Shown here: piece by piece, positions 10-5,380 of the stretch
Position numbering within the stretch: the first letter of the stretch is position 1
How the letters are laid out: each line of letters starts with the position of its first letter
Source: a virus
Lineage: Duplodnaviria; Caudoviricetes
Length of the DNA stretch: 64,000 nt
Virus record (IMG/VR): IMGVR_UViG_3300042554_000410
Coordinates: 34,497-98,496 of that record
Direction: 5' to 3' (one strand)
Notes under the pieces: model-generated
What the model was told of the DNA's origin: nothing
Seen by the model: the letters and a program-made list of their open reading frames with translations, nothing else
The model's database searches: none
Made by a program: the position numbers and the translations under genes

Positions 10-86
10 TGGCGCACTCGGATGGACTCAAACCACCAACCTCCGGTTTCGTAGACCGGCATTCTATTCAGTTGAACTACGAGTGC
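10..86 (-). tRNA. tRNA-Arg(ACG)
   Basis: Cloverleaf; anticodon arm CCGGT-CTACGAA-ACCGG; encoded CCA; T-loop TTTGAGT. Confidence 0.92.
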
Positions 87-599
87 TTATCTGAGCCAAT
101 TAATTATTTTGAAATGGAATGCAATGGTCACTCTTAACTTAAAGCATTCTCTTGAAGGAGCTTTTCCATAATGTAGCACGTTTGAAGGGAAAAAAATACC
201 TTTATTGTGTTTTGGAATTATAGTTATAATTTTTTTGTTTATATTAAATAGAGTTTCTCCGCCCCAATCAGATTTCCAATCTTCATTAACATAATATACA
301 AAAGTATATTGATCCGAATCGAGACTGTCAGTGTGCCAACATCCATCTAAACCATATGTTTGTCCGTTAGCAAAAACTCTTCTAAGATCACACTGCACTC
401 CTATTTTAAATTGAATTTTTTCAAACAGATTCGTTGTGAAAAAAGAATCGTCTCTAAGTTGAATAAACCAAAATCTACTTTTACTTTCTGGAGTAGCCGA
501 ATGTCCAAATTTCCACGAAGATTTGTCTATTTTCTTGACAATTTTTAATCTGTCATCATCATCAAACACATTATCAAATTCTTCGACTGTGTTTCTCAT
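87..599 (-). CDS. 2OG-Fe(II) oxygenase (prolyl-4-hydroxylase-like)
   Basis: HTD...WGGET...H...R motifs; start moved to MRNTVEEF because the longer ORF overlaps tRNA-Cys. Confidence 0.8.
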   Translation of the reverse strand: MRNTVEEFDNVFDDDDRLKIVKKIDKSSWKFGHSATPESKSRFWFIQLRDDSFFTTNLFEKIQFKIGVQCDLRRVFANGQTYGLDGCWHTDSLDSDQYTFVYYVNEDWKSDWGGETLFNINKKIITIIPKHNKGIFFPSNVLHYGKAPSRECFKLRVTIAFHFKIINWLR

Positions 600-614
600 C
601 TTACGCCTTTTGTT

Positions 615-690
615 TGGAGGAGACGGCCAGATTCGAACTGGCACCTCAAGGATTTGCAGTCCCGTACATTAACCGTTTTGCTACGTCTCC
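615..690 (-). tRNA. tRNA-Cys(GCA)
   Basis: Cloverleaf, loop CTGCAAA, U73, CCA. Confidence 0.93.
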
Positions 691-1109
691 GGATTTATTT
701 TAAAATGTTCAACAGCAATTCTTCTTCTTAACTCTGATGAACTGAAACTGTGTTCGCGCTTATTAAAATGATATTTCATCTTTGATATTTTATAACCTGT
801 GAATGCTTTACCTCTATACTCTTCACCAAGTATACGTATATTTATAGGAAGCATGTTTAGGATATCAAGCAATTCTGCTTCTGTAGAATACACAATAATC
901 TCATCAACAAACTTGCAGGCTCTTACTTGTAATTGCCTTTCAATCAAACTTTGAACTGGTTTGTTTTTCTCTGGTCTATCAATTGTAGGATCCACTTGTA
1001 GTCCAACAATTAACCAATCACATTGCTGCTTTGCTTCTTCTAACATTGCAACATGACCAGCATGAAACAAATCAAACGTAGAACATGTAAATCCAATAAT
1101 CTTGTTCAT
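681..1109 (-). CDS. Glycerol-3-phosphate cytidylyltransferase-like (TagD family)
   Basis: FDLFHAGH (HxGH) and C-terminal SSS-LR motif; start MNKIIGF; stop overlaps the tRNA-Cys 5' end. Confidence 0.85.
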   Translation of the reverse strand: MNKIIGFTCSTFDLFHAGHVAMLEEAKQQCDWLIVGLQVDPTIDRPEKNKPVQSLIERQLQVRACKFVDEIIVYSTEAELLDILNMLPINIRILGEEYRGKAFTGYKISKMKYHFNKREHSFSSSELRRRIAVEHFKINPET

Positions 1110-1125
1110 AATGTTTTCTCCTAAT

Positions 1126-1199
1126 TGGCTGCCCTTCGTGGATTCGAACCACAATTGCTGGAGTCAGAGGCCAGAGTCCTGCCGTTAGACGAAAGGGCA
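1126..1199 (-). tRNA. tRNA-Gln(CUG)
   Basis: Cloverleaf, loop CTCTGAC, U1-A72, G73, CCA. Confidence 0.92.
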
Positions 1200-1200
1200 A

Positions 1201-1274
1201 TGGTACTGCATAGTGGAATCGAACCACTGTAATCGGCTCCACAAACCGATGTTCTACCATTGAACTAATGCAGC
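1201..1274 (-). tRNA. tRNA-His(GUG), alphaproteobacterial type (no G-1, A73)
   Basis: GCTGCAT/ATGCAGT-A-CCA; loop TTGTGGA; the base at -1 is T. Confidence 0.92.
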
Positions 1275-1283
1275 ACTTGTAAT

Positions 1284-2030
1284 CTACATATGACAGAAAA
1301 ATAATTTTTCATCTTCTGTGAGTAAAGACCAAAATATATTGTTTAAGTGTTTACGAAAAAACATTATGTTTTGGTATAGGTCTTCCGAAAAATGAAAGTC
1401 TGCGTATCTTGCTGCTATACCTATTTCTAGACCTTCGGCGATTTGTGGAACTTTATTGTTTTGTAGTTTCCAATAAAGTTCTTCCCATTTATCAATGAAA
1501 TATTTAAGTTTAAATGTATTGCGAAATACTATAAAACCTTCTTGAAATGTAAATATGGAATCGTTCTTATCAAATTCCAACACATCATATTTCTCATCGT
1601 AAGCTTCTCTGTGTCCAGAAGAAAATAGCGGCGTTACTATATCAAATCTTTCTCTTTTACACTCTTCTAAGAAATTCTGAATTTTCAGTTCTTCATATGA
1701 ATCATTAAATACGAAGTCACTATCAATGTATATTATGTATTCCGATGTAGATTTTTGAAACGCATTTTTTAGTGCTAAAAATTTTAGATTATAGTTGAAG
1801 TGAGAAGTCGATTGAATTTCTTCATTCTCGTAAAATATAGGATATTTTTCAGGTATCTTATATGTGTATAAATTTTTTATGTTTGGCACAATATCATTTG
1901 TTGTTAAATAAACTTTTGCGTTGTTGTGTTTATTTTTATCTTCAACAAAACTTGCCGCTAACTCGGAATAAGGAGATTTAAATCGCCAATTGTATCCAGC
2001 AGATAGCATTGTATAATCATATGTAATCAT
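1284..2030 (-). CDS. Putative glycosyltransferase (GT-A-like)
   Basis: IIYIDSD DxD motif, K-x-x-A-L helix, QEGFIVF; AT-rich. Confidence 0.55.
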   Translation of the reverse strand: MITYDYTMLSAGYNWRFKSPYSELAASFVEDKNKHNNAKVYLTTNDIVPNIKNLYTYKIPEKYPIFYENEEIQSTSHFNYNLKFLALKNAFQKSTSEYIIYIDSDFVFNDSYEELKIQNFLEECKRERFDIVTPLFSSGHREAYDEKYDVLEFDKNDSIFTFQEGFIVFRNTFKLKYFIDKWEELYWKLQNNKVPQIAEGLEIGIAARYADFHFSEDLYQNIMFFRKHLNNIFWSLLTEDEKLFFCHM

Positions 2031-2052
2031 AATATGTCCTATACTTTAGAAA

Positions 2053-2129
2053 TGGTTGCGGGAGTGGGATTCGAACCGCACGATCTTCGACTTATGAGGC
2101 CGATGAGATGACCGCTTCTCTATCCCGCA
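2053..2129 (-). tRNA. tRNA-Met(CAU), probably initiator-like
   Basis: TGCGGGA/TCCCGCA-A-CCA resembles the fMet acceptor stem; loop CTCATAA. Confidence 0.88.
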
Positions 2130-2132
2130 ATG

Positions 2133-2651
2133 TCAATGTTGTATTGTTTTAAAATTAACGGCGATAACCGTTTTTCTACCTTTCGATTTGTTGAAACTTG
2201 ATCTATGTTCTAGTAGAGATGGAAATAAAATGAAATCGCCTTCTTTTACGTTTGCTGTGTAAGTTTCTTCACTATTAAGAGGATTTCTAAATTCAGTAGC
2301 CGGAGAATCCTCTGGCAATTCAAGATAATACACTAAATTCCAATCTGATCCTGAATGTCTATGCCATTCATGATGATCATTGGTTTCATATTGTTGAAAC
2401 CAATAACGACCCATTTCAAATCGATCATAATGCATATTTTTAAAATATCTTTTCAAGATTGGATTGAAATACATCATTAGCGTTTCGATGTATTCGCTAT
2501 TATGATTAGGATATTGCCAATCGCTCTTTGTAACTTTTTCACCATCAAGTAGAGTGTTACATCCAACAGACTCTTCTATCATCTGTAGAAAATCTTTTTT
2601 AAGATGATTGTGTTTATGAAACGACTCAATTATTAATGGTATTTGGAACAC
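2133..2651 (-). CDS. Putative 2OG-Fe(II) oxygenase
   Basis: WFQQY...HEWHRH...VYYL...EGDFILFPSLLEHRS...K(T)VIAVN; GTG start after a GGAGA RBS, since the longer ORF overlaps tRNA-Glu. Confidence 0.75.
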   Translation of the reverse strand: MFQIPLIIESFHKHNHLKKDFLQMIEESVGCNTLLDGEKVTKSDWQYPNHNSEYIETLMMYFNPILKRYFKNMHYDRFEMGRYWFQQYETNDHHEWHRHSGSDWNLVYYLELPEDSPATEFRNPLNSEETYTANVKEGDFILFPSLLEHRSSFNKSKGRKTVIAVNFKTIQH

Positions 2652-4636: not shown

Positions 4637-4637
4637 T

Positions 4638-4713
4638 TGGCTGGATAGCTTGGATTCGAACCAAGGACATCCTCGTTAACAGCGAGGCGCTCTACCGCTG
4701 GAGCTACTATCCA
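4638..4713 (-). tRNA. tRNA-Asn(GUU)
   Basis: CCTCG-CTGTTAA-CGAGG; G73; CCA. Confidence 0.93.
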
Positions 4714-4716
4714 ATA

Positions 4717-4844
4717 TTCTATACTTTCAGATATGCACCGACGGTTTCGAAGCCGTCCACCTTGAACGCCCCATACGGAGCGCGGCTGTGACCTACACAT
4801 GAGCGGTAGCTACAACGCCCTGGTGCATATCTGAAAATATAGAA
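4717..4844 (-). ncRNA. Long-stem tRNA-mimic RNA A
   Basis: ~22-bp terminal stem with a T-arm-like hairpin GACGG-CTTCGAAA-CCGTC stacked on it. Confidence 0.65.
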
Positions 4845-4845
4845 C

Positions 4846-5005
4846 TCTCTTTTCGTCAGCGGTTGAAGTAGATGATGAGATTTTGCAACTCATACTGGAT
4901 CTCCGATTCGTTCGTCAGAGGAACTACTAAGAATCACCGTTCTACTATTAAACTACATCTACTGATTCATCTTGGCCGAGACTATCAACCACTGACGAAA
5001 AGAGA
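4846..5005 (-). ncRNA. Long-stem tRNA-mimic RNA B
   Basis: 21-bp terminal stem enclosing a cloverleaf (4867-4963) with D-arm, expanded anticodon arm and T-arm ATGAG-TTGCAAAAT-CTCAT. Confidence 0.65.
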
Positions 5006-5162
5006 ATTATGTGAGGCTACGCCGAATCGTAGTAATCTCACCGGTGTTTCGTCATTCGGTACGCTCAGTTTTAAAAAACTAAGAAAAAGGAACTTAACAA
5101 TGTAAATCAGCGGTGCTGCTTATCCTGCAGCTAGGAAACTCTTTCAATCAACTTACAAACAC

Positions 5163-5191
5163 AATATAGCAGTTCAGAACCAGGAAGTCAA
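5163..5191 (-). promoter_or_regulatory. sigma70-type promoter for the tRNA array
   Basis: TTGACT-N17-TATATT. Confidence 0.65.
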
Positions 5192-5202
5192 CTTTTATTT
5201 TT

Positions 5203-5228
5203 GCATAACTGCTATGTTCTGGACGCAT
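5203..5228. promoter_or_regulatory. GCAT-N7-ATG(C/T)-N7-GCAT operator-like motif
   Basis: Same 11-bp-period motif at 9912-9937 and 46207-46243. Confidence 0.55.
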
Positions 5229-5233
5229 AACTC

Positions 5234-5271
5234 AAAAAGAAGAACCCCGAAACTTTTGGCTTCGGGGTTCT
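5234..5271 (-). terminator. Intrinsic terminator (candidate attenuator)
   Basis: 12-bp stem AGAACCCCGAAG/TTTCGGGGTTCT followed by TCTTTTT. Confidence 0.85.
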
Positions 5272-5296
5272 AAGAAACTAAGTCTATCCGTAAGAC

Positions 5297-5380
5297 TTAA
5301 AGCATAGAACCCCTCGCGTCTGCCCATGCTGGGCGACCTTCAAATTGATTATTCGTAATTGGGCAATAATGCGATTTCAT
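5297..5380 (-). CDS. 27-aa leader peptide MKSHYCPITNNQFEGRPAWADARGSML (candidate attenuator peptide)
   Basis: ATG..TAA read directly; 19 of 20 amino acids; codons 23-26 (GGGGTTCTA) are complementary to the terminator 5' arm; promoter immediately upstream. Confidence 0.72.
   Translation of the reverse strand: MKSHYCPITNNQFEGRPAWADARGSML

Follow-up and report, generated by a model that had tools for sequence, protein, structure and literature searches.

The amino acid operons of enterobacteria (trp, his, leu, thr and pheA) are controlled by leader-peptide transcription attenuators, and the multivalent attenuators of ilvGMEDA and thr have leaders in which codons for two or three amino acids are mixed in clusters. 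T-box riboswitches, which regulate aminoacyl-tRNA synthetase genes and amino acid genes, are sensors of uncharged tRNA. For phages, transcriptional control of the two tRNA subclusters of T4 was reportedly described by Goldfarb and Daniel in 1980 (cited in PMC9693318). The T4 tRNA region is not known to contain a leader peptide. A published paper deals with pheL (PMC3082878). It has long been asked why tRNA genes are carried by phages, and according to a recent proposal phage tRNAs take the place of host tRNAs that defence nucleases have destroyed (PMC10264068); promoters, terminators, leaders and attenuation were all absent from the text of that paper in a term search. No published description of an element such as the one reported here was found in full-text literature searches, subscription journals and supplements, with their possible promoter and terminator maps, being outside this scope.

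The window, that is, the whole stretch of 64,000 nt that was analysed, corresponds to positions 34497-98496 of a 98,496-base contig (IMG/VR record IMGVR_UViG_3300042554_000410; Duplodnaviria; Caudoviricetes) from an uncultured T4-like freshwater (lake) phage. ARAGORN identified 22 tRNA genes in the window, every one on the minus strand. Judging from its anatomy and from comparison with other phages, which support this reading well, region 10-5380 probably contains a ribosome-operated (leader-peptide) transcription attenuator inside the tRNA array. The relevant features are as follows.

5408-5436, minus strand: promoter P1, with -35 TTGACA (5436-5431), a 17-nt spacer with TG, and -10 TATAAA (5413-5408)
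5297-5380, minus strand: leader ORF of 27 codons plus stop, using 19 of the 20 amino acids (Val absent)
5361-5372, minus strand: predicted region 1 (codons 3-7), whose partner in the minimum-energy fold at full length is region 2 plus flank
5318-5337, minus strand: hairpin 1, within the leader ORF (codons 15-21), 8 pairs with a single bulge, closing a 3-nt loop
5305-5313, minus strand: region 2, GGGGTTCT plus A (codons 23-26), a copy of the terminator 3' arm, complementary to the 5' arm
5280-5298, minus strand: hairpin 2, a 6-bp stem with a 7-nt loop, which begins within the stop codon and is nested in the antiterminator
5234-5271, minus strand: intrinsic terminator, in which 5271-5259 and 5253-5241 form a 13-bp stem around a 5-nt loop, followed by a T-rich tail
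10-4713, minus strand: 16 downstream tRNA genes with protein genes interspersed, behind the leader; the array runs on left of the window
6795-7715, minus strand: upstream block of five tRNAs (Arg-UCU, Leu-UAA, Met, Ile-UAU, Leu-CAA), not behind the attenuator
19165-19238, minus strand: tRNA Gly-UCC (ARAGORN)

The order along the minus strand is thus promoter P1, ORF, region 2, stop codon, hairpin 2, terminator and tRNAs (4713-10). The upstream gene ends with its stop codon (5440-5438) directly before P1; where relatives differ in their upstream DNA, conservation sets in at the -35 hexamer of P1, and the -10 region of P1 is almost invariant (alignment A1). The terminator, whose 5' and 3' arms are referred to as regions 3 and 4, is the only minus-strand terminator-like site outside tRNA genes in positions 1-9000. 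It starts 28 nt past the leader stop codon, which itself lies 6 nt beyond region 2, the 8-nt copy of region 4 in the last codons of the leader. For the upstream tRNA block (6795-7715), no leader or terminator of its own was found. An Rfam scan of positions 1-8000 (E-value limit 5) detected no T-box or other family in 5230-5440.

In the predicted fold, 5313-5305 pairs with 5272-5264 and thereby uses the 5' arm of the terminator, and the resulting antiterminator (-23.5 kcal/mol; z-score of -5.0 relative to shuffles) is comparable to the terminator (-21.6 kcal/mol). Among 13 aligned sequences, 95.7% of cells are paired in the antiterminator helix, with one pair altered on both sides, 87.5% in hairpin 1, with one pair altered on both sides in four sequences, and 100% in hairpin 2, the loops of which differ between relatives. 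Hairpin 1 is a possible pause hairpin. As most helix positions are invariant within the window's own family, covariation is thin, consisting of one double change each in hairpin 1 and the antiterminator, each of which may be a single event. The ninth antiterminator pair, which lies outside the terminator stem, is changed from A-U to G-C in three relatives that were not selected by pattern (L002, L094 and L100); their antiterminators fold at -19.8 to -23.2 kcal/mol, and L002 also has an antiterminator mismatch without a compensating change. Region 1 is paired with region 2 in the full-length minimum-energy folds of most families, by a short helix that the 36-codon family lacks. The leader stop codon is positioned at -1 to +7 nt relative to the end of region 2 in all 27 distinct variants, and 23-31 nt separate it from the start of region 3. 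Given the usual size of the ribosome footprint, this placement would allow a terminating ribosome to cover region 2 and to leave the terminator free.

The following mechanism is suggested by these features. The first 27 codons of the P1 transcript would be translated, as comparison between phages indicates, and translation would be coupled to RNA polymerase. Region 2, 8-9 nt within the last codons, could pair with region 3 to form a helix that encloses a small hairpin and equals the terminator in stability. A ribosome keeping pace would reach the stop codon and mask region 2, so that the terminator would form and transcription would end. A ribosome lagging at any of about 20 earlier codons would leave region 2 available to region 3, and polymerase would continue into the tRNA genes. 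The likely direction of the response is that slow reading by the ribosome would result in more tRNA. As the leader contains 19 amino acids, mostly once each, it would report general decoding speed and not how well a given amino acid is supplied.

A search pattern made of regions 2, 3 and 4 matched 42 viral contigs, three of which were unrelated; the other 39 have a promoter, an ORF of 25-41 codons ending -1 to +7 nt past region 2, a hairpin and a terminator. Regions 2-4 were imposed by the pattern in 26 relatives, and sequence identity in these regions is not independent evidence. An identical leader module occurs in 10 loci, including a contig with a flanking protein just 67% identical. In addition, two records of one other phage lineage (G001 and G002) have a second attenuator with an entirely different terminator sequence and the same logic of regions 2, 3 and 4. 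No cultured phage in a collection of 50,697 records matched the element. The terminator is bridged by contigs from two RNA libraries (5045-5383 and 5205-5356), which may reflect DNA carry-over and are a weak hint in favour of the attenuator.

An alternative is that the module is a stand-alone small gene for a 27-residue peptide acting in trans, the resemblance of its last codons to the terminator arm being incidental. It has its own promoter and terminator, with a new promoter directly after, and within the window's family the peptide core is conserved, some codons for Pro, Thr, Phe and Arg having changed synonymously. However, third-position changes are not in excess, substitutions being spread about evenly over codon positions (for instance 10/9/13 and 27/23/26), and the peptide has no Pfam or PHROG match. 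The 27 distinct leader peptides fall into seven families, most of which have little or no likeness to each other, yet they agree in position, length class, placement of the stop and RNA elements. The terminator-arm copy persists in three different reading frames and amino acid contexts, and same-strand tRNAs always follow within 2.5 kb (33 of 33 loci with at least 700 nt downstream; opposite-strand tRNAs at none). A small gene is improbable. We consider very improbable the converse explanation of a non-coding element, either a small RNA or a mere terminator of the upstream gene, with an accidental ORF. Such an element would be compatible with the Shine-Dalgarno match, which is weak or missing in several leader variants, and three conserved hairpins would suit a small RNA; terminated attenuator RNAs can reportedly act in trans in other bacteria (PMC6614838). 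Against it, an open frame of matching length ending just past region 2 is preserved in 27 of 27 variants, length differences within families consist of whole codons only, and shuffled upstream sequence retains such an ORF with P of 0.015-0.10 per family (product over five merged groups about 3e-7, hand-calculated). Three families, and also G001 and G002 in their first leader, have the ATG 5-7 nt past the -10 hexamer, and in one relative (L088) the module directly follows a tRNA, with no upstream protein gene to terminate.

Between the leader terminator and the first tRNA gene, the following additional features were identified.

5163-5191, minus strand: promoter P2 (TTGACT, 17 nt with TG, TATATT; 10 of 12 matches), 41 nt past the terminator tail
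4714-5160, minus strand: conserved non-coding stretch from P2 to tRNA-Asn (fold z-score -5.5), with a motif of 22 nt at 5110-5089
about 5007-4845 and 4844-4717, minus strand: two folded domains of this stretch, each with long stems

The non-coding stretch matched no Rfam family, and its 22-nt motif is exact in 14 viral contigs. P2 is present in the window's lineage and in the L112-type family, and its hexamers are preserved with a different spacer in L091; it is absent from five other families, and in five of the seven families no sigma-70-like site of at least 9/12 was found between the terminator and the next genes. Array transcription from P2 would be expected even under full termination at the leader. 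Because this strong promoter follows the terminator, the attenuator in this window can only modulate the array and not gate it, and read-through would add to transcription from P2.

The preliminary description of this locus proposed that the leader serves as an index to the tRNAs under its control. A downstream tRNA was indeed found by ARAGORN for each of the 14 codon types that it listed, and the Ser, Thr, Phe and Gly(GCC) tRNAs foretold left of position 1 are present as Ser-UGA, Ser-GCU, Thr-UGU, Phe-GAA and Gly-GCC, among eight further tRNAs in that part of the contig, the others being Met, Val-UAC and Leu-UAG. This latter agreement is to be expected of every phage that encodes a complete set of tRNAs. 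The list of leader codons omitted AGG, GCG, TCT and the second ATG, and AGG is read only by Arg-UCU, located upstream of the leader. Leu tRNAs had been placed upstream only, which holds for Leu-UAA and Leu-CAA; a third (UAG) is downstream, as is a Val tRNA. Altogether, the 24 tRNAs downstream of the leader (16 in the window and 8 to its left) cover 20 of 20 amino acids and read 24 of the 27 leader codons with strict wobble and 26 with relaxed wobble, compared with means of 20.4 and 25.0 for 27-codon windows of the phage's own long ORFs (P of at least the leader's value, 0.087 and 0.44). For the in-window tRNAs alone the count is 19 of 27 (P 0.10-0.21), and exact Watson-Crick codon-anticodon complements number 12 of 27, versus 46% in genes (P 0.65). 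The match between leader and array is thus real but no better than chance, ordinary gene windows being similar; with a complete downstream set any ORF would match, and in this window the match carries no information on the index claim.

The amino acid diversity of the leader offers the index idea partial support. Its 27 residues comprise 19 kinds (P 0.001 relative to random composition, 0.0005 relative to gene windows and 0.006 relative to dinucleotide-shuffled open frames, a control for base composition); no amino acid occurs more than three times, the sole adjacent repeat is one Asn-Asn pair, and no cluster of regulatory codons for one sensed amino acid is present. Six of the seven leader families are more diverse than expected (combined p of 1.7e-5, or 9e-4 with related families merged), the 36-codon family and three variants of the window's family not being diverse. 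These three close variants have only 14-15 kinds, lacking 5-6 amino acids that have downstream tRNAs, yet full arrays lie behind them.

A strict form of the index, in which the leader codon set was selected to mirror exactly the tRNAs behind the terminator, appears unlikely, and the chance-level coverage and strong P2 described above speak against it. Comparison between relatives yields evidence on both sides. The first leader of G001 and G002 contains 17-18 kinds, and only 1 of 35 residues in the second is D, E, H, Y or R, versus 24% expected (P 0.0008); this second leader is preceded by the Glu, Tyr, Asp and His tRNAs and by two of the three tRNAs for Arg. In the window's family, tRNAs of the upstream block read 1 of 271 codons preceding region 2, versus 6.1% in genes (13 related sequences; P 0.27 for the window alone), and two pairs of relatives have swapped Cys/Arg or Tyr/Cys codon positions with the amino acid set unchanged. 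In contrast, tRNA-Tyr was lost in L082, L083 and L085 with the leader unchanged and TAT retained, and no Tyr homologue was found in the 136.5-kb record (81% complete). Likewise, Tyr codons are used by the leader of G005 and Cys codons by that of G003, although the corresponding tRNA is missing from each, and G004 has downstream tRNAs for 6 amino acid kinds as opposed to an 18-kind leader. The second leader of G001 and G002 fits the index idea, these other lineages break it, and support for the strict index is only partial.

A further proposal, which we regard as tentative and on balance doubtful, is that nested leader-peptide attenuators govern phage tRNA arrays and monitor the tRNA pool as a whole, with the amino acids of the tRNAs behind it sampled by each leader. 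Loss of any host tRNA, through starvation or a tRNA-cleaving defence nuclease, would slow translation of the leader and switch on the replacement set, and the accumulated tRNAs would shut the switch off. If true, a translated sensor on the array would mean that phages gauge their decoding capacity and set the supply of tRNA to match, and leader-peptide attenuation would reach beyond single amino acids to the complete tRNA pool by way of a compact element of about 200 nt.

Compared with known systems, the phage element resembles trp-type attenuators in that a promoter is followed by a short ORF and then by an intrinsic terminator, on the same strand as the controlled genes, and in that a segment near the ORF end could pair with the terminator 5' arm and would be masked by a terminating ribosome; an upstream partner (region 1) for region 2 is predicted in the folds of most families. 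Unlike them, its leader has no run of codons for a single amino acid but 19 kinds, mostly once each, and is followed by phage tRNA genes rather than biosynthetic genes, here with a second promoter past the terminator. As in the ilvGMEDA and thr attenuators, one leader would report more than one amino acid, although the phage leader samples nearly all of them, unclustered. A terminator/antiterminator switch responding to tRNA status, as predicted for the phage element, is shared with T-boxes, which differ in binding one tRNA directly with no need for translation. As for T4, the locus is the tRNA cluster of a T4-type phage, parts of which would be transcribed under separate control.

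The minus-strand reading frame of 27 codons at 5380-5297, which the preliminary description had named as a leader, is present inside the tRNA gene array, and the element around it most probably acts as a ribosome-operated attenuator, sampling the decoding of nearly all amino acids. Its parts and the promoter behind it are as follows.

Features of the probable attenuator and of the second promoter (window coordinates)
5436-5408, minus strand: promoter P1, beginning directly behind the upstream gene's stop codon (read from sequence)
5380-5297, minus strand: leader ORF, 27 codons (read from sequence)
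5337-5318, minus strand: hairpin 1, within the ORF (read from sequence)
5313-5305, minus strand: region 2, GGGGTTCT plus A, codons 23-26 (read from sequence)
5299-5297, minus strand: leader stop codon (read from sequence)
5298-5280, minus strand: hairpin 2 (read from sequence)
5271-5241, minus strand: terminator with T-rich tail (terminator search)
5191-5163, minus strand: promoter P2, 10/12 matches plus TG, 41 nt past the terminator tail

Region 2 is a copy of the 3' arm of the terminator (region 4) and is therefore complementary to the 5' arm (region 3). Folded without the 3' arm, regions 2 and 3 pair into the predicted antiterminator, a helix around hairpin 2 with -23.5 kcal/mol (z -5.0), and the terminator folded alone has -21.6 kcal/mol; in the predicted full-length fold, region 2 is paired with codons 3-7 and the terminator is formed. 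Region 3 begins 28 nt past the leader stop codon, and a ribosome standing at that stop, to judge by footprint size, would presumably cover region 2 and leave region 3 free. The leader had no Rfam match at the gathering score or at an E-value limit of 5, and its peptide none in Pfam or PHROGs.

With the protein encoded upstream of P1 as bait, 80 viral loci were retrieved, two with tRNAs (the syntenic loci L001 and L002) and 78 without. In one syntenic contig the flanking protein is 67% identical, yet the -35 hexamer of P1, tRNA-Asn and all the sequence between them are almost unchanged. Further lineages came from patterns made of the peptide core or of a conserved 22-nt downstream motif; in them the peptide is variable, the terminator stem carries compensating changes, and the stem of hairpin 2 is kept with a different loop. 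When 13 distinct sequences are aligned, 80-100% of cells can pair in the terminator, both hairpins and the antiterminator, with most helix positions invariant; beyond the terminator stem the antiterminator has one additional pair, formed as A-U by 10 sequences and as G-C by three. The 24 new loci obtained with a 16-nt version of the motif were taken for chance matches, because in all of them both motif and element are without a neighbouring tRNA (23 lack any tRNA). Among cultured phages, megablast of 4600-6900 matched just a tRNA-Asn, and sensitive blastn with the elements of the window and of the related locus L108 found no match.

For a wider family, regions 2, 3 and 4 were combined into a gapped pattern, which matched 42 viral contigs (29 new), 39 of them with a common layout and three unrelated. 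After addition of the earlier loci, 48 loci have a complete leader, some being one contig fetched twice; they encode 27 distinct peptides of 25-41 residues, grouped into seven families, most of which have little or no mutual likeness. Every variant has its stop codon -1 to +7 nt past region 2 and the beginning of region 3 23-31 nt past the stop, and the antiterminator (-16.7 to -25.7 kcal/mol) and the terminator (-16.5 to -22.6 kcal/mol) are about equally stable. A same-strand tRNA lies within 2.5 kb at 33 of the 33 loci with at least 700 nt of downstream sequence, and an opposite-strand tRNA at none. At 26 new loci the search pattern itself fixed the sequence of regions 2-4; independent support is given by the ORF, by where the stop codon lies, by the tRNAs and by variants reached in other ways. 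Within families, lengths differ by whole codons and changes are spread about evenly over the three codon positions; the frame is conserved and the peptide drifts, as would be expected for a leader that needs just translation. A shuffled upstream part retains such an ORF with P 0.015-0.10 per family. In two pairs of loci, L112 with L115 and L095 with L105, Cys/Arg or Tyr/Cys codon positions are exchanged via paired transitions that retain the amino-acid set, and in L095/L105 one change also keeps a base pair of hairpin 1.

The promoters of these leaders have features of their own. The -10 region of P1 (5413-5406) reads as the T4-type late-promoter octamer TATAAATA, and three other families have ATAAATA in the spacer just ahead of a TATAAT or TACAAT -10 hexamer, with the leader ATG 6-7 nt past that hexamer (octamer or ATAAATA at L106, L108, L111, L123, L125 and L133). 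Three families, and the first leader of each of two longer viral records (G001 and G002), have an ATG 5-7 nt past the -10 hexamer. The late-type motifs suggest dual early and late use, and they and the short distance to the ATG suggest leaderless transcripts.

According to the preliminary description, the leader codons list the tRNAs encoded behind the terminator. For all 14 codon types that it listed, the named tRNA occurs among the 16 genes at 10-4713, and the Ser, Thr, Phe and Gly(GCC) tRNAs that it expected left of the window are all among the eight there (Ser-UGA, Ser-GCU, Phe-GAA, Met, Gly-GCC, Val-UAC, Leu-UAG, Thr-UGU), the whole contig having 30. It erred in placing Leu tRNAs upstream only, since a third one lies downstream, as does a Val tRNA, and its codon list lacked AGG, GCG, TCT and the second ATG, the sole tRNA for AGG being upstream of the leader. 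Each of the 20 amino acids has a tRNA among the 24 downstream ones, which together read 24 of the 27 leader codons under strict wobble and 26 under relaxed wobble, compared with means of 20.4 and 25.0 for every 27-codon window of the phage's 101 long ORFs (P of at least the leader's value 0.087 and 0.44). Exact codon-anticodon complements are not enriched either (12/27 in the leader vs 46% in genes, P 0.65). The match between leader and tRNAs is thus real yet within chance, and uninformative as a match; a complete tRNA set reads any ORF, and finding the expected tRNAs therefore does not separate the readings.

The amino-acid diversity of the leader, by comparison with several controls, does exceed chance. 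Its 27 residues include 19 of the 20 amino acids, where random peptides of phage composition have a mean of 14.35 kinds (sd 1.42; P 0.001); P is 0.0005 against windows of real proteins and 0.006 against dinucleotide-shuffled open frames of the same bases. Diversity is above expectation in six of the seven leader families (combined p 1.7e-5, or 9e-4 after merging two pairs of related families), and this also counts for a strict index, in which the codons of each leader would mirror the tRNAs behind its terminator. Such an index is also favoured by G001 (146 kb) and G002 (225 kb), each with two attenuators. The first, with a different terminator sequence not picked up by the pattern and the same design of regions 2, 3 and 4, heads Glu, Tyr, Asp, Arg, His and Met tRNAs and has a leader of 17-18 amino-acid kinds. 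The second precedes tRNAs for Trp, Ala, Ser, Asn, Thr, Lys, Met, Ile, Gln, Gly, Pro, Cys, Val, Phe and Leu, and D, E, H, Y and R make up one of the 35 residues of its leader vs 24% expected (P 0.0008), the lone residue adjoining region 2.

These second leaders and the general diversity fit the expectation that leader content tracks array content, but several lineages break the match. The related loci L082, L083 and L085 are without tRNA-Tyr and still have a leader identical to that of the window, TAT included; no tRNA-Tyr homologue was found in the 136.5-kb record (81% complete). The longer record G005 has 27 tRNAs without Tyr and G003 has 25 without Cys, yet their leaders use Tyr and Cys codons, respectively. 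G004 has a leader of 18 kinds ahead of tRNAs for six amino acids. Leaders with 14-15 kinds precede full arrays in three variants of the window's own family. In the window's leader, codons of the upstream block number 0/21 before region 2, which is not significant (P 0.27). A strict index is possible but rather unlikely, and general sampling of decoding remains the preferred reading.

The chief point against strict control of the array in the window is the putative promoter P2: because it follows the terminator, read-through from P1 would merely add to P2 in this phage. The P2 hexamers are conserved where the spacer differs. A 10/12 site is present in three members of the window's lineage (the window, L091, L129) and in three of the L112 type (L112, L115, L128), and five other families have no promoter site of 9/12 or better past the terminator. 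Between terminator and P2 (5232-5192, minus strand), an imperfect 13-nt palindrome is followed by an A-rich tract, both retained in the diverged relatives L002, L091 and L093; they may be an operator or UP element for P2. From P2 to tRNA-Asn extends a conserved non-coding stretch (4714-5160, minus strand) without Rfam match, folding into two domains with closing stems of at least 20 bp and a T-arm-like hairpin in each (z -5.5). It includes the 22-nt motif (5110-5089), exact in 14 viral contigs, and similar modules occur in L112, L119, L120 and L128; the stretch may be a stable RNA that is processed out along with the tRNAs. Assembled contigs from two RNA libraries (5045-5383 and 5205-5356) span the terminator, with RNA starts, ends, strand and levels not readable, DNA carry-over possible and uncovered parts carrying no meaning.

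Within the window the array itself comprises 22 minus-strand tRNA genes (ARAGORN), 20 of which are confirmed by Rfam at gathering score. Ahead of the first block (7715-6795) there is no leader and no terminator, and a 62-codon ORF extends to the block. The 92-nt tRNA-Ile(UAU) gene at 6877-6968 (ARAGORN) adjoins tRNA-Leu(CAA) without spacer, and Rfam matches it only weakly, to the tRNA-Sec model (27.9 bits). A non-tRNA direct repeat without Rfam match occupies two spacers, at 2785-2855 after tRNA-Lys-UUU and at 4114-4184 after tRNA-Asp (85% identity over 100 nt, the first ~68 nt identical). Protein genes are interspersed at 87-644, 681-1154, 1284-2030, 2133-2729 and 5438-6064: two are of 2OG-Fe(II) oxygenase type (Pfam), a third has relatives annotated as ferrochelatase and 2OG-Fe(II) oxygenase, and the set further includes a cytidylyltransferase and, below the Pfam cut-off, a weak match to a glycosyltransferase. 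In related phages, tRNA blocks of the 225-kb contig (G002) flank a permuted (two-piece) tmRNA gene that specifies a 10-residue tag (L159 3011-3481; also in L158), and two related arrays include a tRNA with the amber-reading anticodon CUA (L159 5045-5123, L162 4830-4905; ARAGORN).

The right-hand 64 kb of a viral contig of 98,496 bases (40% G+C) form the window. Among its large ORFs are matches to T4-type DNA polymerase, portal, major head protein and helicases. The major head protein is at most 68% identical to that of any of 50,697 deposited phages, among which pelagic Methylophilales and Pelagibacter myophages are the best matches; the relatives come from metagenome-derived viral contigs, and several sequencing runs in which parts of the stretch occur carry the label freshwater or aquatic metagenome. 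On these grounds the source is an uncultured T4-like phage, probably of fresh water.

Neither the T-box nor any other Rfam family matched at the leader, and in the main texts covered by full-text literature searches no description of leader-peptide attenuator control of tRNA genes was found; an eLife paper on phage tRNAs and defence (PMC10264068) leaves promoters, terminators and leaders unmentioned. The element follows the same four-segment logic as the trp attenuator and has the structural features of the leader-peptide attenuators of amino-acid operons. It differs from the latter in that their defining cluster of regulatory codons is absent from its leader, and in that, unlike them, it precedes tRNA genes.
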